A stretch of 64,000 nucleotides of DNA from the NCBI GenBank assembly GCA_000435075.1, contig FR890667.1:36642-100641 (forward strand). Reading direction: 5' to 3'. Under the pieces are notes generated by a model, which saw only the letters and a list, made by a program, of their open reading frames with translations, ran no database searches and was not told the DNA's origin. Of this stretch, positions 3-28,277 are shown in pieces. The position numbers were made by a program, and so were the translations under genes. The DNA is from Bacteroides sp. CAG:770. GTDB lineage: Bacteria > Bacteroidota > Bacteroidia > Bacteroidales > UBA932. Every line of letters begins with the position of its first letter. Within the stretch, counting starts at the first letter, position 1.

Positions 3-31
3 GTTTCGTTCTAGTTGAAACGTTTTTTTTT
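3..31 (+). terminator. Weak hairpin (gtttc...gaaac) followed by T9; possible rho-independent terminator of a gene upstream of the window
   Basis: 5-bp stem at 3-7 and 17-21, then a run of 9 T; seen directly in the sequence. Confidence 0.3.
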
Positions 32-9270: not shown

Positions 9271-10202
9271 TCCGCACTCTTGGAACCGCCGGAGAGAAAT
9301 ATCAGACGTTGCTCGATTCGCTTGTCAGCCAGACTCTTCCGCCGGAAGAGATATTAGTCTATATCGCTGAAGGATATGAAATTCCATCGGAGACAGTGGG
9401 AACTGAGAAGTATATCTTTGTCAAGAAAGGGATGGTGGCGCAGAGAGCTTTGCGTTACGATGAGGTTAAGACAGAGTATATACTATTCCTTGATGACGAT
9501 CTGTATTTTCCTCCAGATGCCGTAGAAAAAATGTTTAGCCTTCTTGGAAGATATAGCGCAGATGTGATTTCTCCGGATGTATTTCACAATTCTGAGCGTC
9601 CATTCAAACAAAGGTTTATGATGGCGGCATCAGGAAGAATGAGAGCAAGGTATAACGACAGGCACTGGGGATACAAGGTTATGCGGACAGCAGGGTATTC
9701 CTATAATGCTCATCCTGTTAAAGTTGCTTACTGGTCACAAACTAATGCGGGGCCTTGTTTTTTGTGCTCAAAGAAATCTTTCCTGTCAATACGATTTGAA
9801 GAAGAACTTTGGCTGGATAGACAAAAGTATCCTATTGGTGAGGATCAGGTGATGTACTATAAAATGTATAAGTCTAACTTAAAGCAACTTACTGCATTTA
9901 CAACTGGAATTGTTCATCTGGATGCTGGAACTAATAGAAAGCCCGAGAAAGAGAAGTCTCTCATATATGCAGACTTTATATATAAGACCATTTTCTGGCA
10001 TAGATTCATATATCTTCCAGAAAAATCAGTTATGATGAGACTTGTAGATATTCTATGCATTGGATATGCATTTACGTTTGCCTTAGTGATATCACTGATA
10101 AAGGGCAGGTTTGATATATTCAAGATAAAACTTGATGCTATGAAGGAGGGACGTAAATTCCTCAAAAGTGAAGAATACAGAAAATTACCGTTGATAGTAT
10201 GA
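9252..10202 (+). CDS. GT-A fold glycosyltransferase with a C-terminal membrane anchor
   Basis: AVIRTLGTAGE N-terminus, a DxD motif (FLDDDLYF), and two predicted TM helices at the C-terminus. Confidence 0.55.
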   Translation: MQYTAVIRTLGTAGEKYQTLLDSLVSQTLPPEEILVYIAEGYEIPSETVGTEKYIFVKKGMVAQRALRYDEVKTEYILFLDDDLYFPPDAVEKMFSLLGRYSADVISPDVFHNSERPFKQRFMMAASGRMRARYNDRHWGYKVMRTAGYSYNAHPVKVAYWSQTNAGPCFLCSKKSFLSIRFEEELWLDRQKYPIGEDQVMYYKMYKSNLKQLTAFTTGIVHLDAGTNRKPEKEKSLIYADFIYKTIFWHRFIYLPEKSVMMRLVDILCIGYAFTFALVISLIKGRFDIFKIKLDAMKEGRKFLKSEEYRKLPLIV

Positions 10203-11137
10203 CAATTCCTGTTGTTTTTGCCTTCGACAAGAACTTGGTGATGCCTGCATGTGTATGCATCTCATCATTGCTGATGAATGCTAAGAAGGATACAAGTTAT
10301 GATATCTTTATATTGCATCCGGCAAATCAGTCAATGACCCAGACAGACCTTGTGAAATTGTCGGAATACTATGATAATTGTAAACTGACATTCAGACCGG
10401 TTGGTAATGAGTTTGATAATGCATTTGAAATCAGAGGCATAACGACTCCTGCATATTATCGCCTGCTGATTCCGGAAATCATACCGGAGTACGATAAGAT
10501 AATATATTCTGATGTCGATGTTATATTCAGGCGTGATTTAAGTGACCTTTATAGTATTGATTTAGCCGGTGTATATATGGCTGCGACATACGATGTTGGG
10601 ATGAATCTCGGGAAGGATGGAGTTGCACATATCAGTGCCACTAAAGGACTTGTTCTGGGAAAATATATCCAGTCAGGATTTATAATGCTTAATTCTTCGA
10701 AACTAAAAAATGATGGATTGGTAATAAGATTTAAGGAAGAGGCGAAGAAACAATATAAATTCCAGGATCAGGATATTCTCAATGTCGTTTGCGGGAAGAA
10801 TCTAAAGGTCCTCCCAGCAGAATACAACATGACAGACTACACTTTTTACTATCTGAATAGCGGAGACGAGCTTATAAAGTCCGGATATGTCAAGGAAGAG
10901 GAAATTTCAGAAGCCAAGCAGTATGGAACTCTTCACTTTAATGGTCACAAACCATGGGAAAGTTACAGTATAAACTTCGATATCTGGTGGGAATACTACA
11001 GAAAGTCCCCATTTTTCGACGAGAAATTCTACTTTGACTTCTTCTATAGGAAAATCAATGATTATGACCTTCTTCCTCTGTGGAAAAGAGTCAAGATTCT
11101 GTTGAGGTACTTTGTTTTCGGGAGAAGGATTGTTTAA
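10199..11137 (+). CDS. Family 8 glycosyltransferase (LPS glycosyltransferase-like)
   Basis: IPVVFAFDKNLVMPACVCISSLL...YYRLLIPEI...KIIYSDVDVIF...FNGHKPW is the classic GT8 arrangement. Confidence 0.8.
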   Translation: MTIPVVFAFDKNLVMPACVCISSLLMNAKKDTSYDIFILHPANQSMTQTDLVKLSEYYDNCKLTFRPVGNEFDNAFEIRGITTPAYYRLLIPEIIPEYDKIIYSDVDVIFRRDLSDLYSIDLAGVYMAATYDVGMNLGKDGVAHISATKGLVLGKYIQSGFIMLNSSKLKNDGLVIRFKEEAKKQYKFQDQDILNVVCGKNLKVLPAEYNMTDYTFYYLNSGDELIKSGYVKEEEISEAKQYGTLHFNGHKPWESYSINFDIWWEYYRKSPFFDEKFYFDFFYRKINDYDLLPLWKRVKILLRYFVFGRRIV

Positions 11138-11150
11138 TTGACATAGACGG

Positions 11151-12488
11151 ATGCATTATATATTATATACGCTGGCATTGGTGGTGCTATCTTTCTATTT
11201 CTTCCCGTTTGAATTTACGTTCATGCCGGGAATGAATACTAAGATGGCGATGGCTGGTATCGGATTGTCCGTACTGGCAATTCAGTTTGCCAAGAAAAGG
11301 AAGGTAGTGGTAGATAACGACTTCCTCATGATATCAGTCTTGGCCGCCATGGTTTCACTCATCGGTTTCATAGCTGTAACATATAATGGAACTCATGATT
11401 ATACCTATTCTACTTACATCGTGTCAATGTTGGTTTGGCTCAGTGCTGCCAATGTAGTCGTGGCTTTGCTCAAGACAATTCACGGAAAAGTAGATGTCAG
11501 GTTAATCTGTGATTATCTCATAGTGCTATGTGTAGTACAATGCGCTTTAGCTTTAATCATTGATAGTGTACCCGCTGTCAAGCATTTCGTGGATTTGTTT
11601 GTCGCCGGACAGGGATTCATGGGTAAGAATGAGACAAGACTTTATGGAATCGGCTGTAGTCTGGATGTAGCGGCTACCAGATTCTGCGCCATATTGCTGA
11701 TGTGCGTATATCGGCTTGTAGGAATCTCTGAAGGAGAAACCAACCAGAGCAAACGCATTTGGCTAATGCTATGGTATCTTTCAGCATTCATGTTTATAGC
11801 AGTGGTAGGAAATATGATTGCCAGGACGACCACTATCGGTATAGCATTGTCAGTTGTTTACTTACTTATATTGACGCGTCCGTTTTCACTCAGTTCTATA
11901 GAAAAGTACAAGACTCTGTGGAGAACATCGGGAATAATGCTGGTTATTGCAGTATGTTGTTCAATACTATTCTATAACATCAGCCCGGCATTCAAGCAAA
12001 ACTTGAGATTTGCCTTCGAAGGTTTTTTCAGTTTGGCAGAGAAAGGCACATGGGAGGTACACTCAAATGAGATCCTGAAAAACATGGTCGTTTTTCCAGA
12101 TGAAATCAAGACATGGATTATAGGCAATGGTTATTTCGATAATCCATACGATAACGAGCCATATTACACAGGAGTACGATGGCATGGCTATTATCAGGAC
12201 ACAGACATCGGCTACCTTCGATTTATATTTTATTTTGGTGTTTTCGGCCTGATTACCTTCATGGCCTACTTCATAAAGGTAGCGTTGACCTGCAGGAAAC
12301 GTCTGCCGGAAATGGGCTCATTGTTTTTAATGCTCCTCTTGCTGAATTTTACCATTTGGTGCAAGGTCTCGACAGATATTTTTCTGGTTTTTGCCCTGTT
12401 CCTTTGCCTGCCCTACAAAACTGAACCAGAAAAACTCAAGATAAAAGAGAATATTACCTCCGACAGCCAGACTGTCGATATGCAATAA
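11151..12488 (+). CDS. wzy: Wzy-like polysaccharide polymerase / O-antigen ligase-like integral membrane protein
   Basis: 445 aa with about 10 TM helices and a large aromatic-rich hydrophilic loop near the C-terminus (NISPAFKQNLRF...NPYDNEPYYTGVRWHGYYQD), as in Wzy/O-antigen ligase proteins. It is the only polytopic membrane protein in the operon. Confidence 0.55.
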   Translation: MHYILYTLALVVLSFYFFPFEFTFMPGMNTKMAMAGIGLSVLAIQFAKKRKVVVDNDFLMISVLAAMVSLIGFIAVTYNGTHDYTYSTYIVSMLVWLSAANVVVALLKTIHGKVDVRLICDYLIVLCVVQCALALIIDSVPAVKHFVDLFVAGQGFMGKNETRLYGIGCSLDVAATRFCAILLMCVYRLVGISEGETNQSKRIWLMLWYLSAFMFIAVVGNMIARTTTIGIALSVVYLLILTRPFSLSSIEKYKTLWRTSGIMLVIAVCCSILFYNISPAFKQNLRFAFEGFFSLAEKGTWEVHSNEILKNMVVFPDEIKTWIIGNGYFDNPYDNEPYYTGVRWHGYYQDTDIGYLRFIFYFGVFGLITFMAYFIKVALTCRKRLPEMGSLFLMLLLLNFTIWCKVSTDIFLVFALFLCLPYKTEPEKLKIKENITSDSQTVDMQ

Positions 12489-12492
12489 TTTT

Positions 12493-13476
12493 ATGATAAA
12501 TGTTTCAGTCATAGTTCCGATTTATAATGTCGGGAAGTACATAGAACGTTGTGCGGAATCGCTGCTGTCCCAGACTATGAAGTCGGGAATCGAATTCATT
12601 TTCGTGGACGACGCGGCGACGGACAATAGCATTGACATCCTCAAGACTGTCATTGCCAGGCATCCTGAGCGCAAAGATCAGGTGAAATTGCTGACGCACC
12701 CCGTGAACAAGGGCCTTCCTGCAGCAAGAAATACCGGAATGGACGCAGCTGAAGGCGAATACATATATCACTGTGACAGTGACGATTACGTCGAAGCCGA
12801 TATGCTGAGGAAAATGTACATGGCGACATTGACCCGTGGAGCCGACATCGTGTGGTGCGACTGGTATCTGACATTCCCTCACAACGAAAGGTACATGTCG
12901 CAGCCGATGCGCAGCACGCAGTTCGCAGCGGTAAGGTCAATGCTGGACGGCACGATGAAGTACAATGTCTGGAACAAAATCGTCAGGAAAAAACTCTATA
13001 CCGACAACGGAATCCGCTTTCCGGAAGGCCACAGCATGGGCGAAGACATGACCATGATTCGCCTGATGTCCAGGGCAGTACGTGGCGCACACGTCCACGA
13101 AGCATTCTATCATTATGTGAAGAGCGACGTGGCCATGTCCAGCGGAACACTTTCAGACAGGGCACTGGCCGACCTGAAATTCAATACCGACGAAACCATC
13201 GGATACCTGAAAAGCGTGTTCGGAAAAGGACTGACAGAAGGAATCGCATTATTCAAGCTCAATGTCAAGCTGCCGTTCCTCCTGACCGGAAGCATAAAAG
13301 ACTACCGTCGCTGGCAAGAATGGTATCCGGAAGCCGACAAATACATCTGGAACAACAAGCTTCTGTCGTTCAGAATAAAGCTCCTGCAACAATTCGCAGC
13401 CTGGGGCATCTATCCTGCAATCTGGGTTTATTTCAATGTGTTCCAGCGCTTTGTGTACGGCGTAATTTACAAGTGA
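12493..13476 (+). CDS. Family 2 glycosyltransferase (GC-rich paralogue of 7279-8259)
   Basis: VSVIVPIYNVGKYIERCAESLLSQT...FVDDAATDNS...CDSDDY; roughly 50 percent identical to the 7279 gene but with much higher GC. Confidence 0.85.
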   Translation: MINVSVIVPIYNVGKYIERCAESLLSQTMKSGIEFIFVDDAATDNSIDILKTVIARHPERKDQVKLLTHPVNKGLPAARNTGMDAAEGEYIYHCDSDDYVEADMLRKMYMATLTRGADIVWCDWYLTFPHNERYMSQPMRSTQFAAVRSMLDGTMKYNVWNKIVRKKLYTDNGIRFPEGHSMGEDMTMIRLMSRAVRGAHVHEAFYHYVKSDVAMSSGTLSDRALADLKFNTDETIGYLKSVFGKGLTEGIALFKLNVKLPFLLTGSIKDYRRWQEWYPEADKYIWNNKLLSFRIKLLQQFAAWGIYPAIWVYFNVFQRFVYGVIYK

Positions 13477-13516
13477 AACTGTCATTGACAACCACATATT
13501 AAAAAACTGAACCTCC

Positions 13517-14677
13517 ATGAAATTGACATATTGCATCCACTCCATCTACAACCCCGGCGGTATGGAGAGGGTGCTGCTGAATAAAGTGACATATCTGAAG
13601 AATAAGATGGGATGGGACGTGTCCATTGTGACGACAGACCAGCATGGACGCCCACCGTTCTATCCGTTTCCCGACGGCGTGGAAATCACAGACCTGGGAA
13701 TCAATTATTCTGATGACAACCATAAAAGCCCGCTTCTGAAATTTTTGGGGTATTTCAATAAGAGACGGGCTCACAGGAAGGCCCTGACGGAATTCTTGAA
13801 AAAGAATAAAACTGATATAATGGTCTCTCTCTATCCGTCAGAGTCTTCCTTTATGCCGAAAATCAAGGACGGGAGCCGCAAGGTTCTCGAACTGCACTAT
13901 AACAGATTCTTCCGTCTCCTCTATGGAAGAAAAGGACTTCTGAGACTTGCTGACCTCTGGCGTACAAGACAGGATCCTATGATGGTCAGACGTTTCGACA
14001 AGTTCATCGTCCTGACCAATGAAGATGCGGCATTGTGGGGCGGACTTCCGAATATGGAAGTCATACCGAATGCCGCCATGAAATTGTCAGACAAAAGTAC
14101 GGACTCGACACCTCACAGAGTAATCGCTGTGGGACGTCTGGACTACCAGAAAAGCTTTGACAGGCTGTTGGCCATCTGGGAGAAAGTCATGAGAAATCCG
14201 GCACTTTCAGACTGGAAACTGGACATCTTCGGGCAGGGTGAATGGAAACAGCAACTTGAGGATATGATAGATGTGCTGAAAATCAGGGACAGCGTGACTA
14301 TCCATAAGCCTGTGAAAGACATTGGCTCCGAATACCTCAGGAGTTCTATTCTGGTGATGACATCACACTATGAGGGCTTCCCTATGGTGATGATTGAAGG
14401 AATGGCCTGCGGCCTTCCTGTCGTATCGTTTGACTTCAAATGCGGACCATACGACATCATCAGGGATGGAAACAACGGATATATAGTCACCGACGGAGAC
14501 ATCGACACATTCGCGGAGCGTCTTACGAAATTGATGACGTACGATGACCTTCGGAAGAACATGTCAGAATCAGCGCTGGAAATCTCTGAAACTTTTTCTG
14601 AAGAAAAGGTGATGGAAAAATGGATTAACCTGTTTGAAACACTAAAACCGACTGCTGATGAAACTGTTGCAAATTAA
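13517..14677 (+). CDS. Family 4 glycosyltransferase (GT-B fold, Glyco_trans_1-type)
   Basis: The C-terminal half LVMTSHYEGFPMVMIEGMACGLPVVSFDFKCGPYDIIRDGNNGYIV is a GT4 EX7E-type region. Confidence 0.8.
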   Translation: MKLTYCIHSIYNPGGMERVLLNKVTYLKNKMGWDVSIVTTDQHGRPPFYPFPDGVEITDLGINYSDDNHKSPLLKFLGYFNKRRAHRKALTEFLKKNKTDIMVSLYPSESSFMPKIKDGSRKVLELHYNRFFRLLYGRKGLLRLADLWRTRQDPMMVRRFDKFIVLTNEDAALWGGLPNMEVIPNAAMKLSDKSTDSTPHRVIAVGRLDYQKSFDRLLAIWEKVMRNPALSDWKLDIFGQGEWKQQLEDMIDVLKIRDSVTIHKPVKDIGSEYLRSSILVMTSHYEGFPMVMIEGMACGLPVVSFDFKCGPYDIIRDGNNGYIVTDGDIDTFAERLTKLMTYDDLRKNMSESALEISETFSEEKVMEKWINLFETLKPTADETVAN

Positions 14678-15887
14678 TCCTGTTCTGAGGACGAGCACAT
14701 CGACCGGTAGAATTGTAAGGGAAATAGGTGAGGCTGCCATGTCTGCCGGATGGGAAAGTTATATTGCATATAGTGTAGGGCGTGACGGAAAGATGTCTTG
14801 CACTTCCAAGAGAGTGTTTGTCGGAGATCCGCTGAGTGTCGCTTTCCATGGCATGATTACAAGATTGTTTGACCGTCATGGCCTGGCCTCAGACGCCGCT
14901 ACAAGGAAATTTATAAAAGATATTGAAAGGATAAATCCTGATATAATACACATACATAACATTCATGGCTATTTCCTGAACTACAAGATACTGTTCGATT
15001 GGCTTAGCCGTTCAGGAAAACCAGTCGTCTGGACAGTCCACGACTGTTGGCTTTTTACCGGTCACTGCTATTACTACATGAAAGCAGATTGCGACAAATG
15101 GAAATACGGCTGTGGCCAATGTCCCCAGACCCGAGAATTCCCGAAAAGCTGGCTGATAGACCGCTCCGCCAAAAACTGGCGCGACAAGAAAAACGCATTC
15201 TGCTCCATCCCGTCCGACAAAATGACCATCGTCACCGTCTCGGACTGGCTGAAAGGCGAAATGCAGCAATCTTTCCTGAAAGATTTCCGCTACAAAGTCA
15301 TACATAATGGTATAGACACGGAAGTCTTCAAGCCGTCAGACGGCACGGCAGTCCGCAAGCGCTACGGGATCGGCGACAGGAAAATGTATATGGGAGCGGC
15401 AAGTATCTGGAGCACCGCGAAAGGGCTCGACGACTTCATAAGCATGGCGTCAATGCTGACCCCGCAGGAAGTCATCGTTCTGGTAGGCCTGGACAAGAAT
15501 CAGATGACCCGCATGCCGGCCAACATTATCGGCATCCCGAGGACCTCCGACGTCCACGAACTCGCCGAACTGTACAGCGCAGCTGACGCGTTCCTGAACC
15601 TGACTTATCAGGACAACTACCCGACCGTGAACCTCGAGTCGATATCCTGCGGCACCCCGGTGGTGACCTACAGGACAGGCGGAAGCCCCGAGTCCGTTAC
15701 AGGTCAATGCGGTATGGTGACCGACTGTGGCGACGTCGCCCAGGCTCTGGCCGCAGCGAGAAAGATAGCCGCGACGGACCGTTCCGTCTGGCGGGACAAC
15801 TGCCGGGCATACGGACTGGCCAACTTCAGGAAGGCCGACCGCTATGCCGATTACATAAAACTATACAAAGAACTATTGAATGGCTGA
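14658..15887 (+). CDS. Family 4 glycosyltransferase
   Basis: 409 aa; GT-B-like, with the C-terminal NLTYQDNYPTVNLESISCGTPVVTYRTGGSPE. Confidence 0.7.
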   Translation: MKLLQINPVLRTSTSTGRIVREIGEAAMSAGWESYIAYSVGRDGKMSCTSKRVFVGDPLSVAFHGMITRLFDRHGLASDAATRKFIKDIERINPDIIHIHNIHGYFLNYKILFDWLSRSGKPVVWTVHDCWLFTGHCYYYMKADCDKWKYGCGQCPQTREFPKSWLIDRSAKNWRDKKNAFCSIPSDKMTIVTVSDWLKGEMQQSFLKDFRYKVIHNGIDTEVFKPSDGTAVRKRYGIGDRKMYMGAASIWSTAKGLDDFISMASMLTPQEVIVLVGLDKNQMTRMPANIIGIPRTSDVHELAELYSAADAFLNLTYQDNYPTVNLESISCGTPVVTYRTGGSPESVTGQCGMVTDCGDVAQALAAARKIAATDRSVWRDNCRAYGLANFRKADRYADYIKLYKELLNG

Positions 15888-17030: not shown

Positions 17031-17666
17031 ATGAGTACAGACACGTTGACTGCAATCAAGAGCAGTCGTACATTTACTTTATTCGACGAGGCCCTGAAAC
17101 GCATCCTCGACTGCGTCGCCTCAGGACTCGGACTTATTGTCTTCAGCCCGCTCTTCCTTATAATATGGATAGCAATCCGTCTGGAAAGCAGCGGCCCGGC
17201 AATATTCAGTCAGGAACGAATCGGCTACCTTGGCCGTCCGTTCACTATCTACAAGTTCAGGTCAATGCGTATCGACTCTGAGCAAGACGGACACCCTGCG
17301 CTCTGCAGCAAGGACGACAGCCGTCTTACCAAAGTCGGAAAATTCCTTCGCGACCACCATCTCGACGAACTCCCGCAGCTGTGGAACGTGTTCCGTGGAG
17401 ATATGAGTTTCGTGGGCCCGAGACCTGAGCGCAAATACTTCATTGACAAGATTATGCAACTCAATGACAGTTATGAGAGACTATACCAGTTGCGTCCGGG
17501 ACTTTTCTCCTGGGCCACACTGTACAATGGTTACACTGATACGATGGACAAGATGCTGACCCGTCTGCACATGGACATCGACTATCTTGAAAACAGAACG
17601 TTGGTAATGGATACTAAAATCATTTGGCTCACAGTCATGTCCATCATCACCGGCAAGAAGTTCTAA
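17031..17666 (+). CDS. Small monotopic initiating phosphoglycosyl (sugar) transferase, PglC/WbaP-C-like
   Basis: 211 aa with one N-terminal hydrophobic helix, then YKFRSM...[21 protein letters not shown], the hallmark of Bac_transf-type sugar transferases. Confidence 0.85.
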
Positions 17667-17673
17667 TACTAAT

Positions 17674-17943
17674 ATGAAGATAAACCCCAATTGCGTGCTG
17701 CGCCGGCTCGGAAAGCAGAACATGGTAGTGAAAGCTGACGGAAAGAACAGCAATATGTCGCAGGTCTATATTTTCAATGACACTGCGACATACCTCTGGA
17801 ATACATTGAAAGACAAACCTTTCACTCTAGACGATATGGCTGCATGCCTGTGCGGCAACTATGACGTCTCACTCGAAACGGCAACCGGCGACGCCGCGGT
17901 GCTGCTTGAAAACTGGAAAGAAAACGGACTCGTGACAGAATAA
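17674..17943 (+). CDS. PqqD-family protein (peptide-binding RRE-like chaperone domain)
   Basis: 89 aa; NPNCVLRRLGKQNMVV...YIFNDTATYLWNTL...LDDMAACL matches PqqD-family architecture. Only an 8-nt gap separates it from the upstream gene. Confidence 0.65.
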   Translation: MKINPNCVLRRLGKQNMVVKADGKNSNMSQVYIFNDTATYLWNTLKDKPFTLDDMAACLCGNYDVSLETATGDAAVLLENWKENGLVTE

Positions 17944-17944
17944 T

Positions 17945-18988
17945 ATGAAGTTGGCATTGACAAGAACAGACAAAGCATTGCTGACCTTGCTCCGGTCCGG
18001 TCTCTGGAACAGGCCGCCTGACACCCCGGAACTCTTCCCCTTGAGTTCTGAGGAATGGAAGGAGGTCTTCGAGAAGTCCAGAAACCATACAGTTACAGCC
18101 ATAGTAGCGGATTCGCTGGAGTATCTGCCTGAAAATCAGCTGCCTTCGGATGAAGTACTGGCTGGGTGGGCAGTCGAATCAGACAGAATCGAAAGGCTCA
18201 GCGGCAAGATGGCAAATGTGACGGCCGGACTTTCTGAGATATACAAGACTCTCAGACCGGTTTGTTTCAAGGGACTCGAATGTGCAAGCCTTTATTCCAG
18301 ACCCTCCAGCCGCCAATGCGGAGACATTGACCTGTATTTCGATGACATTGAAGCCTCTGCGGCTCTGGCGCGACAGCATGGCTACGTCCCCGAACATAAG
18401 CCCGACGGCAGTTTTACCTACGCGGTGCAGGGGATTGTCGTGGAGCACCATCCGTCTTACATTGACCTTTGCGCTCCGCGTAAACGGAAGTGGCTGAGGA
18501 CTTTGGATGAAAATCCTGGCTTCGGGACCGGAATCTGCGGGATGTCGAGACCAGTACCTGCGCTGAATCTGCTCGTTCTTCATTCGCATGTAATGAAACA
18601 TGCTTTCGGTCGCGGTGTGGGGCTGCGGCAGATGTGCGATCTTGCAAGGGCATATTATTCTTATGACGGAATGTATGAACCGGAATACCTCAGGAGAATG
18701 TACCGGAAAGCAGGTCTGGCCACGTGGACTCGCATGATACACGCCTTCCTGACCGATTATCTCGGTCTCGGCAAGGAATTCCTGCCTTACACGGAACCCC
18801 ATGCCGATGCTTCGGAATTTCTGGAAAGAGTGTTGCTCGCCGGAAACTTCGGAAGGTCGATGCCGGGAAGAGGTCAGGGTAAGGTCCGGACTCTCAAAGC
18901 GTTCATGGCCAATGCCTTATTTGCCGCCCGCTATGCTCCGGACGAATATTTCTGGCAGATAGTACAGCTTGCAGGAGGGCAGTTATGA
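17945..18988 (+). CDS. Uncharacterised nucleotidyltransferase family protein (NTP_transf_5-like, pol-beta superfamily)
   Basis: 347 aa; the GDIDLYFDD motif is a G-[SD]-x-D-x-D nucleotidyltransferase signature. The start overlaps the PqqD gene stop by 1 nt. Confidence 0.55.
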   Translation: MKLALTRTDKALLTLLRSGLWNRPPDTPELFPLSSEEWKEVFEKSRNHTVTAIVADSLEYLPENQLPSDEVLAGWAVESDRIERLSGKMANVTAGLSEIYKTLRPVCFKGLECASLYSRPSSRQCGDIDLYFDDIEASAALARQHGYVPEHKPDGSFTYAVQGIVVEHHPSYIDLCAPRKRKWLRTLDENPGFGTGICGMSRPVPALNLLVLHSHVMKHAFGRGVGLRQMCDLARAYYSYDGMYEPEYLRRMYRKAGLATWTRMIHAFLTDYLGLGKEFLPYTEPHADASEFLERVLLAGNFGRSMPGRGQGKVRTLKAFMANALFAARYAPDEYFWQIVQLAGGQL

Positions 18989-19905
18989 GACAGACCAAGT
19001 ATTACAAGATAGCGGATTTCGTCTTCTCGCTTGACCTGCCGGACGGAGTCGATACCACGACGATGCTCCCGTCCTTCCGGACGTTCGGGACCTGCCGGGC
19101 AGAGGACTTGCTGTTCAGGTTTCAGGTCAATGCAGAAGTGCTTGAGAGACCTTCCGGCCTTGAGCTCATCGAGAAGACGGAAAGCGATGTCGGAAAGGTA
19201 AGTATGTACAGGACAGCGGCAGGGGACTGGTGGCTGGAGATGAGTTACACTGACATTGACCATTACATGTCTGTGGATGAAGACTTCAGCAGCGCTTCTG
19301 CTGACATTGACCTCGACGATCCGGATGCCGGCATGGTGCTTTGCTCGATGCTGAGAATTATGTGGTCGCAGGCGGTGCTTGCCTGGGGCGGGATTTCGGT
19401 TCATGCTTCGGCGGTCGTTCTTGGCGGCGTTGCCTATCTGTTTCTCGGCAAGAGCGGAACCGGGAAGAGCACTCATTCGGAGCTGTGGCTGAGGAACTTC
19501 CGTGAAGCGTGGCTGCTGAACGACGACAACCCCGCTATCAGGGTCATTGACGGAAAGGCTTTCGCATACGGGACTCCTTGGAGCGGAAAGAAGCCAGTCT
19601 ATATCGACAAGAAAGTGCCGCTCGGAGGAATTGTCCGTCTGGAACAGTCGCAGGTGAATCGGATGACCATGAAAGAGGGTCTGGATGCGTTCCTCTGCAT
19701 ATATCCGAGCTGCTCGGCTCTGCATCGGGACCCTGTGCAGGAGAACAGATTGTGTGACACTCTGGAGATTCTGTCGGAATCTGTCCCGGTCGGTCTTATG
19801 GAATGTAGGCCTGATGACAAGGCTGCAATAATATGTCATGAAACAATACTGAAGGATAATCCAGCGGCTTCCGGAACATCGGAGGCTGCTGATACCCAAA
19901 CGTGA
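18985..19905 (+). CDS. HPr kinase-related (HprK-like) P-loop kinase
   Basis: 306 aa; Walker A GKSGTGKSTHSELW closely resembles the HPr kinase/phosphorylase GxSGxGKSE loop. It overlaps the nucleotidyltransferase stop by 4 nt (translational coupling). Confidence 0.6.
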   Translation: MRQTKYYKIADFVFSLDLPDGVDTTTMLPSFRTFGTCRAEDLLFRFQVNAEVLERPSGLELIEKTESDVGKVSMYRTAAGDWWLEMSYTDIDHYMSVDEDFSSASADIDLDDPDAGMVLCSMLRIMWSQAVLAWGGISVHASAVVLGGVAYLFLGKSGTGKSTHSELWLRNFREAWLLNDDNPAIRVIDGKAFAYGTPWSGKKPVYIDKKVPLGGIVRLEQSQVNRMTMKEGLDAFLCIYPSCSALHRDPVQENRLCDTLEILSESVPVGLMECRPDDKAAIICHETILKDNPAASGTSEAADTQT

Positions 19906-20706: not shown

Positions 20707-23076
20707 GTGACTATGAATCAGAATAGAAATGATGAGGTCAATGTCATGGACATCCTCTTGTATCTTGCTTCCAAATGGAAATGGTTTTTGTTGTCTGTCA
20801 TCGTGTTCGTCGGCCTGGCCTGGCTGAAGTACTCGTCCACCCCGCAGGTGTTCTTCCGCAGCGCGACAGTCATCATCAAGGACCCGTCGAACAAGATTGC
20901 CTCTGCCGGCCTCGACCGTTACGACAACTATATAAACAAGGTCAACGTTGCCAATGAAATTCTCCAGTTCCGCTCGCGCAAACTGATGCGTGAAGTGGTG
21001 AAGAGGGTCAATGCAGATGTGGACTATCAGGTGAAGGATGGCTTGCTGATGTCCGAACTCTATACGAAATCACCTGTCAGAGTGACCTTCTCTGGACTTC
21101 AGGACTGGGAATATGTATCATTGAAAGTGACACCTCTCAGCAAATTCCTCGTGCGCGTCGTCGAGCGCGTTGACGGTGAAGATGCGAAGGAACTCATTGT
21201 TGATTTTGGAGATACTGTCAATGTTGCAGGTGTCCGGATGTTAGTGACCCCTACCAATTATTACAGTAAGGAGTGGTTCGGAGAACCTGTCTTCGTCACA
21301 AGAAACCCTATCTCCAGCGTTGTAGCGAGATATCAGGGCGGTCTGGGAATCAGACAGGAAGAGGACGAGGCGTCCATCCTGACATTGTCATTGAAAGACA
21401 GCTCGCCTGCGCGTGCCGAGGATGTGCTGAACACCCTCATCTCCGTCTATAACGAAGAGGCTATCAATGACAAGAATCAGGTTGCCATCAATACTGCCGA
21501 GTTCATCAATGAACGCCTGATTATCATTGAATCTGACCTCGGAGGTGTGGAGTCCGACCTCGAGTCTTTCAAGAAGGCCAACAATATCGTGGATCTGAAT
21601 AGTGCTGCAGGCATGTATGTGAATCAGTCTCAGCAGTATAACTCTGATGTGCTGGAACTTGACACACAGCTCAGGCTTGCGGATTATATAAAGGAATATC
21701 TGACTGACCCCAAGAGGGACATTGACCTGATACCTTCTAATACCGGTATCAGCGACATGAAGATAGAAGGCCAGATCAGCCAGTACAATGCAGCCAAGCT
21801 ACGCAGGGACAAGCTCATCGAGGACAGCAGCGAGAGGAACCCGGTCGTGGAGGAACTGAACAATTCGCTCAATGCGATGAAGCAGTCCATCATCCGCGCC
21901 GTGGACAATATGATCGTAAGTATCAATGTCAGACGGAATGATGCATTGGCGCGTGAGTCTCGTGCTCGTGTGCGTGTCGCTTCGATTCCTACCAAGGAGA
22001 GGAAGATGCTTTCTATCGAGCGTCAGCAGAAAATCAAGGAGAGTTTGTATCTGTTCCTGCTGAACAAACGAGAGGAGAATGCTTTGTCTCAGGCTATGGT
22101 GGACAACAATGCCCGTGTCATTGACGGTGCTTCAGGTCCGTCCGGTCCTATTTCTCCTGACAGGAACAAATACATTCTGCTGGGGTTGCTTCTCGGTCTT
22201 GCTGTGCCTGGAACGGTGTTCCTGATGATTATGTTCCTGGATACCAAGATTCACAGTCGCAAGGACATCAAGGGCAAGCTCTCGATTCCGTTTATCGGTG
22301 ATGTCCCTCTGGACAAGGATGAGGAGTCGTCTTCTGTGGAGGAGGCTTTCAAGATTGTCCGTACCAATATGGCGTTCATGTCGAAGAAAGACCATCCTGT
22401 CCAGGCCATCATGACTACGTCAATGGGTGAGGGCGACGGCAAGACGTTCATTTCCAGAAATCTGGCCAAGAGTTATGTGGCTGCCAAGAAGTCCGTTGTC
22501 CTGCTGGACCTGGATATACGCAAGGGAACATTGAGTACCTTCTTCGGCGGACATCATGTGGGTGTTACGAATTATCTGGCGGATCCTTCTCTGACGCTTG
22601 ATGACATCATCCATCATGACAAGGATGTAGAGGGGTTGGATGTGATTTCTTCTGGAACCCATGCTCCTAATCCCGCGGAACTTCTTATGGATGAAAGGCT
22701 TGACGAGCTGTTTGCCGAGCTTCGGAAGCGTTACGAATTCATAATCGCGGACAGTGTTCCTGTGGGAATGGTTGCGGATGCGACTATAGCCGGCAGAATT
22801 GCAGACATGACCATCTTCGTGGTGAGGGCAGGCCGTCTGGACAGAAGGCAGCTGCCTGATCTGGAGACCATGTATGAGGAGAAGAAACTGCGTAATAAGG
22901 CGATTATCCTTAATGGCGCTGATTTCAGCTACAAGGGGTACGGCTATGGTTACGGATACGGTTATGGATATGGCTATGGCTATGGCTACGGTTACGGATA
23001 TGGTTATGGCAATTCCAAGAAGGGTAAAAAGCATAAACGTGGCAGGTCGTCGGAAAAGACGGAGAAAAAATCGTGA
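20707..23076 (+). CDS. wzc: Wzc-like polysaccharide co-polymerase / BY-type tyrosine autokinase with a (Gly-Tyr)12 C-terminal tail
   Basis: An N-terminal TM helix, a Wzz/GNVR-type periplasmic region with coiled coils, a second TM helix (ILLGLLLGLAVPGTVFLMIMFL), a cytoplasmic P-loop (TTSMGEGDGKTFISRNLA), and a tyrosine-rich tail. Confidence 0.85.
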   Translation: MTMNQNRNDEVNVMDILLYLASKWKWFLLSVIVFVGLAWLKYSSTPQVFFRSATVIIKDPSNKIASAGLDRYDNYINKVNVANEILQFRSRKLMREVVKRVNADVDYQVKDGLLMSELYTKSPVRVTFSGLQDWEYVSLKVTPLSKFLVRVVERVDGEDAKELIVDFGDTVNVAGVRMLVTPTNYYSKEWFGEPVFVTRNPISSVVARYQGGLGIRQEEDEASILTLSLKDSSPARAEDVLNTLISVYNEEAINDKNQVAINTAEFINERLIIIESDLGGVESDLESFKKANNIVDLNSAAGMYVNQSQQYNSDVLELDTQLRLADYIKEYLTDPKRDIDLIPSNTGISDMKIEGQISQYNAAKLRRDKLIEDSSERNPVVEELNNSLNAMKQSIIRAVDNMIVSINVRRNDALARESRARVRVASIPTKERKMLSIERQQKIKESLYLFLLNKREENALSQAMVDNNARVIDGASGPSGPISPDRNKYILLGLLLGLAVPGTVFLMIMFLDTKIHSRKDIKGKLSIPFIGDVPLDKDEESSSVEEAFKIVRTNMAFMSKKDHPVQAIMTTSMGEGDGKTFISRNLAKSYVAAKKSVVLLDLDIRKGTLSTFFGGHHVGVTNYLADPSLTLDDIIHHDKDVEGLDVISSGTHAPNPAELLMDERLDELFAELRKRYEFIIADSVPVGMVADATIAGRIADMTIFVVRAGRLDRRQLPDLETMYEEKKLRNKAIILNGADFSYKGYGYGYGYGYGYGYGYGYGYGYGYGNSKKGKKHKRGRSSEKTEKKS
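22936..23010 (+). repeat. In-frame (GGN-TAY)n hexanucleotide-type repeat encoding 12 consecutive Gly-Tyr dipeptides at the Wzc C-terminus
   Basis: ggg tac ggc tat ggt tac gga tac ggt tat gga tat ggc tat ggc tat ggc tac ggt tac gga tat ggt tat ggc; synonymous codons vary between units. Confidence 0.9.
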
Positions 23077-23343
23077 TTTTTTATGACAAACTGCTATAAA
23101 TCAATAAAAAAGTATTAATTTTAAGGGTTGAAATGTATATACCTCTAATAAATAATATGATGAACAGACGTAAATTGCCTTATGTGGTTCCTGAAACCAG
23201 AAAGGTTCAGGTCTTGACGGAGAGCGGTATCTGCGCCGGCTCCAATGTTTCTGTAGTGCAGAAAGATGACAAACCGCTTGTCGAAGTCGATAAGTGGGAT
23301 GAAATCGGTCAGGAAGTTTCATTCGACTAAAATCAAGCAAAGT

Positions 23344-26193
23344 ATGAAATTCGGAAATTTGATTAAGTGTGCCGCGTGGATTGCCGCGTTGGCATCGGTT
23401 TTTGCTTGTGCAAAAGAAGTAGGTCCGGGCTATGAGGAAGGATTGCCTGTAACATCCATCAAGATGTCTATTTCAGCTCCCGGTCAGGATAAGATAGCCA
23501 TTTCCACCAAGGCTACTGAGGCTGTGGAATCTGCAGTAGAGCAGATTGCCATTTTCTTCTATAAGGCCAATGATGCTAATGCTATGCCTATAGTGTCTGA
23601 GATTACACCGACTTTCGCGTCTAATGTCGGATCGAACTATCAGTATAACATTGTCATTCCTGCGACGGATCTCGAGGAGATGCGCAGTGGAAAATGGTAT
23701 ATGTATGCAGTTGCGAACTATGGCAAGGGCTTCTTCCCTGTGGATATCAATGCTCTCAAGGGTTTGAACCGTAGTGAGTTCCTCGATTATTGCATCACCA
23801 AGCAGAACAATGCGTTGGATATTCTGGAGACCTCTGTGCTCATGAGCGGAAAGTATTGCGGAGCAAATACAGACAAGAAGTCTTACAAGACCTATGATGA
23901 GTGTGACGGTTCTTTGGATATCAAGCCTGGCGAGAACATACTTGATGGCATTATCCGTCTCAGACGTAGTGTGGCGAAGATTACTTTCAAGTTTGTGAAT
24001 GGTTCGCATACTATAGCGGGAACGACTACTACGGCCCACGTGACCTTCAAGCCTGAATCTTACGGACTTTATGAGTATTCCCGTTCATGCACATTGATGG
24101 AGCGTGATAATTGGAAAGATGACTTCCCTTACATGGGAGACACTAAGGTCAGCGAGGAGAACAGGTTCCATAACGGTAGTGATTTCCCTATTACCGGTAG
24201 CCAGTTCGTGTTCTATATGCCTGAGAATGTGCAGACTCGCAATGTGAAAGGAACTCCTGACAATGGGTGGACTTATTTCAATCGTGAGGAGCGCAATAGC
24301 GACGGCATGGAGAATCCTACTCAGAAACAGTATAATACGTTCAAATATGCTCCTAAGCACGGAACTTTTGTTGCCGTAAAAGGTACCATTTCGATACCTG
24401 AAGAGAATTACAGCGGTGATGTGACTTATTATATTCATCTCGGTAACTTCAAAAGGTCTGCCGATGACTTTACAGTAAGGCGTAACTATCACTATACTTA
24501 CACGATTACGGTCAATGGCGTGGATAATATTATCGCTGAGGCCAAGGCCGAGGATAGTGGTGAGATTCAGCCGGGTGCTGAGGGAAACATTACCCATACG
24601 ACTGATGCGTACCTCGATGTAAGACTTGATTCTCATTACGAGACTGTGTTGCTTAAGGTCGAGGCTGACGTTGATGCCAGTACTTATGCCGTCAGGGTCA
24701 ATTCTCCGTACACCAAAAATGTTATGGTGAAGAGTACAGATAAACCAGCTGATTTCGAAGCGAAGAAGAAGGATTTGGATTACGGCTGGATTCGTTTCGG
24801 TAAACCTGCTGCAAATAAAGGCTATCGCTCTTACCCTGGTGTGTCGAATACGACTGATGTATTCGGATTGATTGCTGATCTTCAGAGTGCAAATACGACT
24901 AAAACATATTGGAGCAAAGATACTTATAATGGAAAGGAGTATTACTACACCATAGCTTATGTGAATGAGTACTACTATGATGATAAGATGAATGCTGCCG
25001 GAGCAGATAAGACTGCTGTGCTTAAACAGTTCATCAATGCGGATGACCGTACCATGTCTGTAATTCTCGGTCCAAACGTATTTGAGAGTAAGGATGGTCA
25101 CAGTACATACACTGACTTGACCCACGGTTTCTTCAATATCTCCCAGCGTTCTATCAAGACATTCTATGACTTGTCTGTAGCGAATCCGTTCGGAATCGAG
25201 CAGGTCGAGGAGACGGCTGCGACAACTAATTATGGCGGAACTGGAACGGATTCTGATAATGGATATGCGAATATTCCAAATGTCTCTGGTAAGACATGGA
25301 GCACCTATGTTACCAATGGCTTCAATGGTAATATAGGAATGAGAACGACCGCTGCCGAGTATCAGTGTCTATTGAGAAATAGGGATGAGAATGGCAATGG
25401 CACCATAGAAGCTTCCGAGATTAAGTGGTATCTTCCAGCTGTGAATCAGTGTACATATTACTGGTTTGGAATGAACTCTCTTCCTGAGGATGCTCGAATT
25501 AAGATGGAACCAAGAAAAACAAATAATTATTGGAGTAGTACAAGTAGTTTTGCAACTTGGTGGGCAGCAGAGGGGTCGGCATATGGAGCAGCAGAAGGCA
25601 AATGTCAGGTTAGATGTGTAAGAAGTTTGAAATTATATAATGAGAAGGCATCAGAAGTTTCGAAATATAATCTAAATACTAGAATTGTTACTATGCTTGG
25701 TATGGATTCGCGAAGTGTTCGTGAGGCAGGTACTGTTATAGGAGAGTTTGAAAAGCATGAAAGGGGAACTATATCCGATGTTTTTGCATCATCGTTCCAG
25801 ATTGCTAAGAATAATTTAAAAACGACTAATATTTTAGGCAAACCGGTGGATAAAACTTTCACTAATGGGCAGATGCAGGAAGTTGTGGATGCGAACTCTG
25901 CAACATGTAGTGATTATTACGAGGATGCAAATGGTTCGGATAAGGGTAAATGGAGGGTTCCTAATGAGAAAGAGTTGACTCTTATTCTGAAATGGTTGCG
26001 AACTGATAGTAATTATGGCACAACAACAAATCTTAAGATGCTTGCTTCTCGGTCTTATTATCAAAGACATAATTCTAGTGATAATATAGTCTATTATATT
26101 GTCGGAGACAGCAATAAGGGTATGTTTATTACTACGAGTGATCAAACTCAACTTGGCTTCAAAGTCCGTTGTGTTCGAGATGTTGTCAAATGA
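23344..26193 (+). CDS. Large surface lipoprotein with a fimbrillin (Mfa/FimA)-like N-terminal region and two C-terminal Fib_succ_major (FISUMP)-like domains
   Basis: Lipoprotein signal MKFGNLIKCAAWIAALASVFAC. The N-terminal EAVESAVEQIAIFFYKANDA pattern is typical of Bacteroidales fimbrillins. Two domains end ...YWSSTSSFATWWAAEG...QVRCVRS and ...LGFKVRCVRDVVK, resembling the TIGR02145 domain terminus. The start was moved to 23344 from the longer ORF at 23266. Confidence 0.5.
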   Translation: MKFGNLIKCAAWIAALASVFACAKEVGPGYEEGLPVTSIKMSISAPGQDKIAISTKATEAVESAVEQIAIFFYKANDANAMPIVSEITPTFASNVGSNYQYNIVIPATDLEEMRSGKWYMYAVANYGKGFFPVDINALKGLNRSEFLDYCITKQNNALDILETSVLMSGKYCGANTDKKSYKTYDECDGSLDIKPGENILDGIIRLRRSVAKITFKFVNGSHTIAGTTTTAHVTFKPESYGLYEYSRSCTLMERDNWKDDFPYMGDTKVSEENRFHNGSDFPITGSQFVFYMPENVQTRNVKGTPDNGWTYFNREERNSDGMENPTQKQYNTFKYAPKHGTFVAVKGTISIPEENYSGDVTYYIHLGNFKRSADDFTVRRNYHYTYTITVNGVDNIIAEAKAEDSGEIQPGAEGNITHTTDAYLDVRLDSHYETVLLKVEADVDASTYAVRVNSPYTKNVMVKSTDKPADFEAKKKDLDYGWIRFGKPAANKGYRSYPGVSNTTDVFGLIADLQSANTTKTYWSKDTYNGKEYYYTIAYVNEYYYDDKMNAAGADKTAVLKQFINADDRTMSVILGPNVFESKDGHSTYTDLTHGFFNISQRSIKTFYDLSVANPFGIEQVEETAATTNYGGTGTDSDNGYANIPNVSGKTWSTYVTNGFNGNIGMRTTAAEYQCLLRNRDENGNGTIEASEIKWYLPAVNQCTYYWFGMNSLPEDARIKMEPRKTNNYWSSTSSFATWWAAEGSAYGAAEGKCQVRCVRSLKLYNEKASEVSKYNLNTRIVTMLGMDSRSVREAGTVIGEFEKHERGTISDVFASSFQIAKNNLKTTNILGKPVDKTFTNGQMQEVVDANSATCSDYYEDANGSDKGKWRVPNEKELTLILKWLRTDSNYGTTTNLKMLASRSYYQRHNSSDNIVYYIVGDSNKGMFITTSDQTQLGFKVRCVRDVVK

Positions 26194-26213: not shown

Positions 26214-27431
26214 ATGAAGATGAAATTTATTTTAGTGCCGGTGCTGTTGGCATTGACATTCGGTGCAGCCGCACAGCCTCAGGTGAAGGTCAAGAGTGAC
26301 ACCACTGAGACGGTAACTTATGATGGAAACAAATTCCGTGTTCAGACCGCTCCTGCGCGTGCGAACTGGTTCATCGGTCTGCAGGGTGGTGGTCAGCTGA
26401 TTTTCGGTGACCACGACAAGCAGTGCAAGCTGGGTGACCGTATCGCTCCTGCTCTCGACATATATTTCGGTAAGTGGTTTACCCCGGTAGTAGGAGGTAG
26501 GGTGCGCTACAGTGGTCTCAGTTTTAAGGGCGCTACCCAGACTGATGTCCATTCTACCGGCAAGGAAGTTCCGGGAAAGGGTGGTCACGGCTATTGGCTG
26601 ACCAAGCAGAAGTTCAGATATGTGGAGTTCGCCGGTGACGTGATGTGCAATCTTTCCAATGCTTTCGGCGGTTATCGTCCTGACAGGTTCTACAGCGCCA
26701 TCCCATACGTGGGTCTCGGTGTAGGCCGTGTCACCCAGAACCCTAAGACAACTGAGCTCATGGGCCACATCGGTTATTTGAGTGCATTCCGTGTATGTGA
26801 TGCCGTAGATATCAATCTCGACCTCCGCACCGGTTATGTCAATGACCGTTTCGATGGCGAGGAAGGCGGCCGCTATGGTGAGGGTATTCTCGCTGCTACC
26901 ATTGGTGTTACCTATAAGTTCAAGCCACGTGGCTTCGGTCGCACCAAGACTGTTACCCGTGTCATTTCTTCTGAGTATGACGTCAGTGACTACCAGAGAG
27001 TTATCGATGAGACCAAGGCTGAGAACGAGCGTCTCATGAAGGAGGTAGAAGAGCTTCGCAATCTCCCAAGATGGGAAGAGGGCAAGACCAGGACTCTCGC
27101 ATATCCATACTACATTGTCTTCGAACTTGGCAAGTCTGATCTTCTCAAGGCATCCCGCGTGAACCTCGGTATGCTTGCAGAGATTATCAAGGCCAACAAC
27201 GTAGTCTATGTGATTACCGGCTATGCCGACGAGGGCACCGGCAGCAAGCGTCTCAACGAGAAGTTGAGTCAGGATCGTGCCAAGGCCGTATATGACTGCC
27301 TGGTCAACGAGTACGGTGTTCCAGCCTCTCTCCTCAAGACAGCAGCCAAGGGCGGTGTAGGCAACATGTTCTACGACGATCCAGCCCTCTCACGTGCAGC
27401 CATTGCTCTCTACGAGGGTGACAAGGAGTAA
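26214..27431 (+). CDS. OmpA-family outer membrane protein (N-terminal beta-rich domain, coiled-coil linker, C-terminal OmpA/peptidoglycan-binding domain)
   Basis: Signal peptide MKMKFILVPVLLALTFGAAAQ, a coiled coil around DETKAENERLMKEVEELRN, and a C-terminal OmpA-like block YVITGYADEGTGSKRLNEKLSQDRAKAV. Confidence 0.8.
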   Translation: MKMKFILVPVLLALTFGAAAQPQVKVKSDTTETVTYDGNKFRVQTAPARANWFIGLQGGGQLIFGDHDKQCKLGDRIAPALDIYFGKWFTPVVGGRVRYSGLSFKGATQTDVHSTGKEVPGKGGHGYWLTKQKFRYVEFAGDVMCNLSNAFGGYRPDRFYSAIPYVGLGVGRVTQNPKTTELMGHIGYLSAFRVCDAVDINLDLRTGYVNDRFDGEEGGRYGEGILAATIGVTYKFKPRGFGRTKTVTRVISSEYDVSDYQRVIDETKAENERLMKEVEELRNLPRWEEGKTRTLAYPYYIVFELGKSDLLKASRVNLGMLAEIIKANNVVYVITGYADEGTGSKRLNEKLSQDRAKAVYDCLVNEYGVPASLLKTAAKGGVGNMFYDDPALSRAAIALYEGDKE

Positions 27432-27712: not shown

Positions 27713-27821
27713 ATATCCCCCAACTATTCAGACAAAGTAGAGCCTGTGTCAAGCCTGTGCCAATTTCCGCGCCATCATATGCAGTTTGTCCGGAGAAACC
27801 CATGTTCTCACGGACGTTTTC

Positions 27822-27990
27822 TGATTTCATCACCAATCGCAACTCCCACGTCTCTTCGCCTGTGCCACGCCAAACGTCACAACCCACGTTCCATTTTGTC
27901 CCGTCTAAAACGTTTTCCCAGAACAAAACCCATCAAAACCACCATTCCGTACCGCTAAACCGATTTATATGGGACAAAAACCTCAGTTTC
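27822..27990. repeat. Repeat family B, copy 1 (about 165 bp, non-coding)
   Basis: tgatttcatcaccaatcgcaactcc...ccgatttatatgg; about 95 percent identical to 28436-28600. Confidence 0.8.
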
Positions 27991-28277
27991 AGTATGGCCT
28001 AGAAATTATTAACTAGCATAGGTAACAATAAAAAAGAGGGGATAGAGTAGAGTGTCCTTACAAGGACACAGGGCTAAGTCTCAAAACCGCTGACACCCTT
28101 AATATCTACGATAGTGTCCTTTCACCCTTTCAATCCTGCCGAAGCGAAGCCGTCTGTACGCCTTCACCCAAACAAGCCTGAAAACCTCCACTCTAATGGA
28201 GATTTTTACTAATGTGGAATATTGTCTTCTTTTCATTATGATATTTATCGTTAAGTGTGAAAGACAAATTCTCCTAG

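Follow-up and report, generated by a model that had tools for sequence, protein, structure and literature searches.

The locus analysed here lies in a stretch of 64,000 nucleotides (nt) of contig FR890667.1 from Bacteroides sp. CAG:770, hereafter referred to as the window, and is built around three tightly packed genes located in a capsule locus of gut Bacteroidales. These genes encode a PqqD-family protein, a nucleotidyltransferase (NTase) of the NTP_transf_5 type and an HprK-like kinase, and are designated below as the trio. The trio is preceded by the gene of an initiating phosphoglycosyl transferase (PGT), which is the usual upstream gene in related loci, and followed by wza and wzc. A small gene is found about 3 kb downstream of the trio, in the same co-oriented block, between wzc and the gene of a large lipoprotein (Table 1). 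Its product is considered in this work as the candidate substrate of the three proteins.

The three open reading frames (ORFs) of the trio were recovered exactly at the coordinates initially proposed, all on the + strand. Inspection of the junctions led to two corrections: the PGT and PqqD genes are separated by 7 nt instead of 8 nt, and the 1-nt overlap claimed between the PqqD and NTase genes is a 1-nt gap. The 4-nt overlap (ATGA) of the NTase and kinase genes was borne out by the sequence. The wza gene starts 16 nt downstream of the kinase stop codon and the lipoprotein gene 13 nt downstream of the small gene.

The assignment of the first two proteins to their families is well supported, with 46.2 bits against a gathering threshold of 23.4 for PF05402 (PqqD, E=5.8e-12) and 102.1 bits against a threshold of 31.2 for PF14907 (NTase, E=4.9e-29). 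The NTase displays the nucleotidyltransferase G-x-D-x-D motif in the form GDIDLYFDD, which includes the metal-binding G-D-I-D. The view of the PqqD protein as a recognition element (RRE) of peptides that are made on ribosomes and modified after translation (RiPPs) agrees with a search of the PDB with a profile of the family, which retrieved TfuB1 (6jx3, E=1e-6) and TbiB1 (5v1u, E=0.004). The protein is considered RRE-like because these lasso B1 leader-binding proteins are the best solved relatives of its family, and we propose from this relationship that it acts as an RRE-type peptide chaperone.

The description of the third protein as HPr-kinase-like stands at the level of the fold, which a fold search identified as that of HprK and phosphoenolpyruvate carboxykinase (PEPCK), with PEPCK as top match; it does not extend to membership of the TIGR00679 sequence family (13.9 bits against a cut-off of 240). 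Direct searches of the kinase and NTase sequences against those of the PDB returned nothing useful. A kinase profile gave weak PEPCK and HprK matches, and the assignment was settled by the fold search. The kinase family comprises 4508 sequence clusters. Precomputed matches to PF27840 ('ScmC') are carried by homologues, including the 94%-identical P0002, and several of them are flagged as weak or faint; the window kinase gave no match to PF27840 in a local Pfam scan, whose copy of Pfam possibly lacks this model. The homologues P0016, P0037, P0090 and P0097 are named 'phosphoenolpyruvate carboxykinase' by the Prokaryotic Genome Annotation Pipeline (PGAP), with a length of about half that of PEPCK. 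This name is a mislabel, the likeness being found at the fold level only.

Table 1. Genes and motifs of the window (positions in nt, counted from the first letter of the window)
Feature	Position	Strand	Basis or remark
PGT, initiating, small Bac_transf type	17031-17666	+	PF02397, E=3.9e-62
PqqD-family protein, 89 aa	17674-17943	+	PF05402
NTase, 347 aa	17945-18988	+	PF14907 (NTP_transf_5)
NTase motif GDIDLYFDD	18320-18346		residues 126-134
P-loop kinase, PEPCK/HPr-kinase fold, 306 aa	18985-19905	+	
Kinase Walker A, GKSGTGKST	19447-19473		residues 155-163
Wza-type outer-membrane polysaccharide export protein, short, 258 aa	19922-20698	+	Poly_export and SLBB domains
Wzc-type chain-length regulator / tyrosine autokinase	20707-23076	+	GNVR, AAA_31 and TIGR01007 matches
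Small protein, candidate substrate/precursor, 56 aa	23160-23330	+	family alignment
YxxPxT motif of small protein	23181-23198		
C-A-G-S motif of small protein	23229-23243		
Large lipoprotein (DUF4906, Mfa/fimbrillin-like)	23344-26193	+	DUF4906, E=1.6e-6
OmpA-like outer-membrane protein, end of conserved block	26220-27431	+	PF00691, E=2.5e-14; position kept in related loci
NusG/UpxY-like gene	5083-5661		part of capsule operon
Wzy-like membrane protein	11151-12488		part of capsule operon

Conservation and gene arrangements of the trio

The neighbourhood of the trio was surveyed in 15 genome loci, 80 metagenome loci and several exact-protein look-ups, all annotated with locally built hidden Markov models. 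The order PGT-PqqD-NTase-kinase-Wza-Wzc is kept in about 45 loci, which belong to several Bacteroidales lineages, and is nearly universal in the clade of the window (kinase identity of at least about 36%). Contigs displaying the conserved block have been assigned to Bacteroides/Phocaeicola, Prevotella, Rikenellaceae and the uncultured Bacteroidales lineage of the window itself, the latter including locus L001 whose proteins are 92-99% identical to those of the window. In capsule-type loci, wza is always found directly after the kinase gene. The glycosyltransferases encoded upstream of the block differ between loci while the order of the block remains constant, which places the trio in the conserved export end, outside the serotype-specific part. 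The association with wza and wzc that the original prediction had noticed in a single locus is thus confirmed across lineages, and the trio is more than a chance insert. Single variants occur in many hundreds of metagenome assemblies.

Kinase relatives at a greater distance (30-36% identity) occupy other gene arrangements. An operon combining the kinase with an S24-type peptidase (S24), PqqD and an ATP-binding cassette exporter (ABC), in the order kinase-S24-PqqD-ABC and unlinked to capsule genes, is common in other Bacteroidales (L079-L114, e.g. L103 at 9959-13237). Further combinations include S24-PqqD-kinase, kinase-NTase and ABC-kinase-Wza-Wzc, as well as S24-PqqD-NTase-ABC-kinase-Wza-Wzc in L089 and kinase-S24-small ORF-PqqD-NTase-ABC in L081. 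The S24 and ABC genes are also present in many capsule-type loci, a few genes downstream and past the OmpA-like gene (L016-L021, L050-L058, L070 and L115-L128).

The S24-type peptidases (those of L016, L103, L115 and 49 others) have archaeal-type signal peptidase I and LexA as best matches, and share an invariant GxSMxP serine, an invariant His-Arg pair and a GDGN motif. As these features are kept throughout the family, its sequences suggest a Ser/His mechanism of the archaeal/endoplasmic reticulum signal-peptidase type over the Ser/Lys mechanism of LexA. The exporter is of the MsbA/bacteriocin-exporter type, without the C39 peptidase domain. An RRE, two modifying enzymes, a protease and an exporter together would follow the logic of a RiPP-like maturation and export set, devoid of lasso enzymes. 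Genes for a precursor candidate, an RRE, a modifying enzyme, a protease and an exporter all co-occur in the related loci L081, L089 and L115-L123.

The small protein encoded downstream of wzc

The trio had initially been described as having no substrate gene in sight. This is correct for its immediate flanks; it does not hold beyond them, as a conserved small gene with a leader-like motif follows wzc and a relative of this gene lies inside the cassette of L081. The longest ORF of the small gene extends over 23133-23330 and the 56-aa protein is counted from the third ATG. Relatives occupy the same position in other loci, the small gene being found downstream of wzc in 36 of the 41 informative loci (kinase-seeded, of the capsule type and extending 3 kb or more beyond wzc). 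The family comprises at least 1140 clusters, none of which is named, and no match to it was found in Pfam or NCBIfam. In alignment order, its members display a Y-x-x-P-x-T motif, a V-x-(L/V)-E motif, a small-residue (C/M)-x-(A/G/S)-S patch and an acidic C-terminal half, the C-terminus itself being usually W/F-D. The Y, P, T, E and S residues are invariant in the alignment and all their synonymous codons are in use, e.g. CCT, CCG, CCA and CCC for Pro. Such synonymous change at invariant residues reveals selection at the protein level, and the small gene is therefore truly coding. A scan of 1.65 Mb in six frames with the extended YxxPxT motif returned 54 matches, 52 of which stand in a small-ORF context. 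The small protein is predicted to be disordered by AlphaFold 2 (predicted local distance difference test score of 59, no structure), and this lack of a predicted fold would fit what is expected of a peptide substrate. Promoter and terminator scans of the interval between wzc and the small gene gave no informative signal.

The YxxPxL motif of lasso leader peptides is the element bound by lasso B1 proteins. The YxxPxT motif of the small protein has the same spacing as this leader motif, which covers positions -17 to -12 (PMC10368454). The most telling loci are L081 and L098, in which relatives of the small protein are found outside of the capsule context. A 41-aa relative (MEETNTKATYEKPQSEIIELELEQPILQSS...) is encoded between S24 and PqqD in L081, and the small-protein relative of L098 adjoins, together with a lipoprotein, an NTase-S24-PqqD-kinase cassette with no capsule genes. 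A relaxed motif scan around the kinase-S24-PqqD-ABC operons yielded L081 alone, and L098 was added by a sensitive profile search. Small genes also adjoin S24 and ABC genes in L129, L131 and L133, loci without the trio close by.

The pairing of small gene and lipoprotein is seen again in other loci. On Alistipes-like contigs, modules of repeated small gene, lipoprotein and OmpA (small-lipoprotein-OmpA-small-lipoprotein and so on) are present both with and without an upstream trio-Wza-Wzc set, and the capsule-free modules still often end in ABC and S24 genes. The Phocaeicola coprophilus strains of L115, L118 and L121 carry an allelic hypervariable cassette at about nt 9900-15400 of each locus. 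Outside of this cassette, through the end of wzc on one side and from ompA on the other, DNA identity between the strains is about 98.6%; the amino acid identities of the allelic genes amount to 37-65% for the small gene, 27-68% for the lipoprotein and 51-88% for a CotH protein. In one pair of strains, the breakpoint between conserved and variable sequence lies inside the small gene, after the first 30 codons or so. The C-terminal half of the small protein varies together with the lipoprotein between these strains. This pattern of sequence variation would fit an N-terminal part recognised by a constant machinery and a C-terminal part co-evolving with the lipoprotein.

One other role was considered for the small protein. 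RmpD is a modulator of Wzc, and an RmpD-like function was set aside, the small gene occurring without wzc nearby and its product having no hydrophobic segment.

As for the rest of the window, the locus is a typical Bacteroidales capsule operon, which further holds a pyruvyl transferase and several GT2, GT8 and GT4 glycosyltransferase genes. No Wzx-type flippase (Polysacc_synt, MatE) was found between 5083 and 27431 in a Pfam scan of the capsule-locus genes other than GT_a (13517-14677) and GT_b (14658-15887). The C-terminus of Wzc (22930-23076) consists of (YG)13, i.e. thirteen consecutive Tyr-Gly, followed by a basic, Ser-containing tail, NSKKGKKHKRGRSSEKTEKKS. The signal sequence of the lipoprotein is MKFGNLIKCAAWIAALASVFAC. 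Two intergenic duplications are present downstream of the OmpA-like gene: segment 27821-27983 is 95-98% identical to 28435-28598, and segment 28272-28449 is 88-89% identical to 28803-28980. The duplicated segments, over 27821-28980, have no match in Rfam. Possible defence or toxin genes around the region encode an Abi_2 protein, an AAA-ATPase_like/PDDEXK_9 protein and a zeta-toxin-like kinase (230-922, 1701-3293 on the minus strand, 50674-51270). The remainder of the scanned window consists of housekeeping genes. In agreement with the reported lack of a lasso cyclase, neither a cyclase nor a B2-type protease was found among the large ORFs scanned, up to 51.3 kb.

Proposed pathway and alternative explanations

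The trio may form the core of a Bacteroidales peptide-maturation cassette set in the capsule export end, with the small protein as its target. Taken as a whole, the analysis gives this reading an even chance, and the assignment of the small protein as the substrate is in itself about equally balanced. The proposed sequence of events can be summarised as follows. The PqqD protein would bind the conserved N-terminal part of the small protein (YxxPxT, V-x-L/V-E and the C/M-x-A/G-S patch) and present it to the kinase for phosphorylation of a Ser or Thr residue, for which the conserved Ser within the C-A-G-S patch is a candidate. The PF14907 enzyme would then add a nucleotide or a sugar onto the phosphate, as PsmN does on the phospho-Ser of pseudomycoidin. 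In the genomes provided with the S24/signal-peptidase-like protease, the leader would be removed by this enzyme, and in those provided with the MsbA/bacteriocin-type ABC exporter the product would be exported to the envelope. The variable C-terminal half may work there with the co-varying lipoprotein, the CotH and OmpA proteins and the Wza-Wzc machine. This scheme starts from the gene content, folds, gene-order conservation, coding small gene and neighbourhood links observed above; every biochemical step, the modified residue, the added group and the final destination are inferred, the chemistry by analogy with the lasso PsmK/PsmN/B1 proteins.

An extension of the scheme, which is a distinctly improbable one, can be formulated for the final product. 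A linear, leader-dependent phospho-peptide derived from the small protein might be joined by the kinase and the PF14907 enzyme, via a phosphodiester, to a sugar belonging to the repeat unit or to the reducing end of the capsule and, once exported, dock on, or cap, the strain-variable lipoprotein/OmpA complex, thereby anchoring or gating the capsule as a peptide-glycan conjugate that diversifies under phage or immune pressure.

Several observations weigh against the small protein as target of the trio. Its tightest coupling is to the lipoprotein, the small gene being always followed within about 10-40 nt by the gene of a large Mfa-like or DUF4906 lipoprotein. The Alistipes-like modules of small gene, lipoprotein and OmpA are often devoid of trio, Wza and Wzc within 6-10 kb and, in one lineage, trio-Wza-Wzc is directly followed by housekeeping genes with no small gene. 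No conserved small ORF, PqqD itself excepted, was found near the kinase-S24-PqqD-ABC operons. The small ORF of L081 is the top non-member of a family profile built without it, at a marginal E=0.037. The window itself holds the RRE, both enzymes and the candidate precursor, and searches of it with phmmer and tblastn found no S24 peptidase, ABC exporter or CotH. The C-terminal half of the small protein is fairly conserved within subfamilies, and the protein therefore does not conform to the textbook combination of a leader and a hypervariable core. The small protein ends in Asp, as opposed to the C-terminal Ser needed by the paeninodin-type kinases (PMC6993621, PMC8498205, PMC10368454). Lastly, the likeness between PsmN and the NTase is drawn at the level of protein type.

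Part of these data would also be accommodated if the substrate were encoded elsewhere in the genome and the small protein were an unrelated partner of the lipoprotein, two envelope modules being merely side by side. The existence of small-gene modules without the trio and of trio-Wza-Wzc sets without the small gene, together with the co-variation of the small gene with the lipoprotein and not with the trio, speak in favour of such an arrangement, and the kinase-S24-PqqD-ABC operons without a nearby precursor imply that some genomes, these at least, must have unlinked substrates. Against it, the two modules are adjacent in the large majority of the informative loci, across several lineages; related small ORFs lie inside or beside the capsule-free cassettes of L081 and L098; small-gene modules lacking the trio still have S24 and ABC genes at their flanks; and the YxxPxT spacing matches that of the ligand of the closest solved RREs. 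We consider an unlinked substrate unlikely. As the small gene is found without the trio and the trio without the small gene, the link between them is strong and not obligatory in either direction.

The two remaining explanations place the target of the trio in the capsule machinery or in the glycan. In the former, the PqqD protein would dock on the tail of Wzc, Wza or PGT, and this tail would be modified by the NTase and by the kinase, possibly through a phosphorylase activity as in HprK/P, so that the trio would regulate polymerisation and export and perhaps replace the phosphatase Wzb. The position of the trio directly upstream of wza-wzc in every capsule-type locus, the long Tyr-rich and Ser-containing tail of Wzc and the fact that the capsule block of the window yielded neither a Wzb nor a PHP phosphatase are in line with this proposal, and enzymes of the nucleotidyltransferase fold such as GlnE and GlnD do modify Tyr residues of proteins. 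A target in Wzc, Wza or a capsule intermediate is nevertheless less favoured because the kinase and PqqD families are also present in peptidase/ABC exporter operons far from wza, wzc and the other capsule genes. In addition, L089 has a PHP-type phosphatase besides the cassette, and no conserved RRE-type motif was identified in Wzc. Regulation of export by the trio is accordingly held to be rather improbable. In the latter explanation, the kinase and the NTase would tailor the polysaccharide or its precursor in the manner of a choline kinase and a cytidylyltransferase, and the PqqD protein would be a scaffold only. The combination of a kinase and a nucleotidyltransferase is a standard route to activated phospho-alcohol donors, the trio lies in a capsule locus directly downstream of PGT, and PEPCK, the best fold match of the kinase, is a small-molecule kinase. 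However, PqqD/RRE domains are not known to bind anything other than peptides, the nearest solved relatives of the present family bind lasso leaders, the trio is constant while the glycosyltransferase content, hence the glycan, varies, and cassettes with a peptidase and an exporter exist outside of the capsule loci. Glycan tailoring appears very unlikely in view of these points. A decayed lasso cluster was also envisaged and rejected, the arrangement being intact across lineages and never accompanied by C or B2 genes.

Capsules are major determinants of fitness, phage resistance and immune modulation in gut Bacteroidales, and the trio sits in the conserved part of their loci. If the trio does mature the small protein, a very widespread RiPP-like pathway would be overlooked by standard genome mining, because a cyclase, a radical SAM enzyme and an annotated precursor are all missing from it. 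Ribosomal peptide chemistry would in that case be tied both to the export of polysaccharide and to a surface lipoprotein that varies between strains.

Comparison with known systems

No description of the cassette, of the small-protein family or of the link with capsule export was found in the literature library searched, whether by the Pfam and TIGRFAM names or by PqqD, Wzc, CotH or DUF4906 combined with Bacteroides. The original prediction referred to a catalogued, function-unknown trio of this composition. This was right in substance, NCBIfam including TIGR04352 ('HprK-related kinase A') and TIGR04353 ('HPr-rel-A system PqqD family peptide chaperone'). This system, catalogued without an assigned function, similarly pairs an HprK-related kinase with a PqqD-family chaperone. 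Identity with it did not stand: the Bacteroidales proteins score far below the cut-offs and are therefore relatives, not members. TIGR04352 gave weak matches with 31 of 32 kinases (best E=1.5e-6), the L103 relative reaching 16.9 bits against a cut-off of 200, and TIGR04353 with 12 of 24 PqqD proteins (best E=2.6e-7). The window kinase and the window PqqD protein had no match to TIGR04352 and TIGR04353, respectively, at E<=1.

Among sequence families, the kinase matches ScmC best (TIGR04249, E=1.6e-5), a protein of the SynChlorMet cassette, in which ScmD (TIGR04248) is a PqqD relative. The score of the window kinase is however limited to 24.4 bits against an equivalog cut-off of 125, and none of the annotated loci showed the radical SAM/SPASM enzymes by which the SynChlorMet cassette is defined. 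In its P-loop fold and its Walker A context (H...G-x-S-G-x-G-K-S-T...D-D), the kinase agrees with HPr kinase/phosphorylase and ATP-PEPCK, and differs from them by its N-terminal domain and its gene neighbourhood.

Of the characterised systems, the closest is the K/N/B1 set of the phospho-lasso peptides (PadeK of paeninodin; PsmK/PsmN of pseudomycoidin; BsfK/BsfN/BsfB1 of Bradymonas). The lasso precedent put forward for HPr-kinase homologues is well documented, PqqD, an HprK-like kinase and a nucleotidyltransferase being found together in the systems of phosphorylated and phosphoglycosylated lasso peptides. The precursor Ser on which the HprK-type kinases act is the C-terminal one in paeninodin and pseudomycoidin and the core Ser3 in BsfA; phosphorylation by BsfK is enhanced by the discrete RRE BsfB1; and PsmN, an 'uncharacterised NTP transferase' inactivated by D134A/D136A, is required for the addition of one or two hexoses to the phosphate (PMC6993621, PMC8498205, PMC10368454). 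The same three protein types are found in the present cassette, i.e. a discrete PqqD-type RRE, an HprK-related kinase and a nucleotidyltransferase. An ABC exporter accompanies many of the loci related to the trio, and the candidate substrate displays Y-x-x-P-x-(T/L) with the lasso leader spacing. Weak matches to a lasso PqqD chaperone model were obtained from 23 of 24 members of the PqqD family, the window protein scoring 18.5 bits against a cut-off of 70 with NF033530 and 16.1 against 80 with NF033536.

The differences are nevertheless substantial. The Asn-synthetase-like cyclase C and the transglutaminase-type leader protease B2 were not found among the scanned window ORFs or in the annotated related loci, and the protease associated with the trio, where present, is S24/signal-peptidase-like. 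With 56-75 aa, the candidate substrate exceeds the lasso precursors in length, and it ends in Asp, not Ser; from the features of lasso precursors it has the YxxPx(T) part only, without Thr(-2) and without a core made of Gly/Ala/Ser/Cys-1 and Asp/Glu-7..9. Finally, the cassette is set within the capsule export blocks of Gram-negative Bacteroidales, beside a hypervariable lipoprotein. Judged from its genes, the locus would represent a non-lasso, S24/ABC-associated and capsule-embedded version of the RRE-kinase-nucleotidyltransferase peptide-tailoring module, provided with a newly recognised candidate precursor family. If so, it would offer a natural non-lasso setting for the action of PF14907 enzymes on phospho-serine, a question that also concerns PsmN and BsfN.

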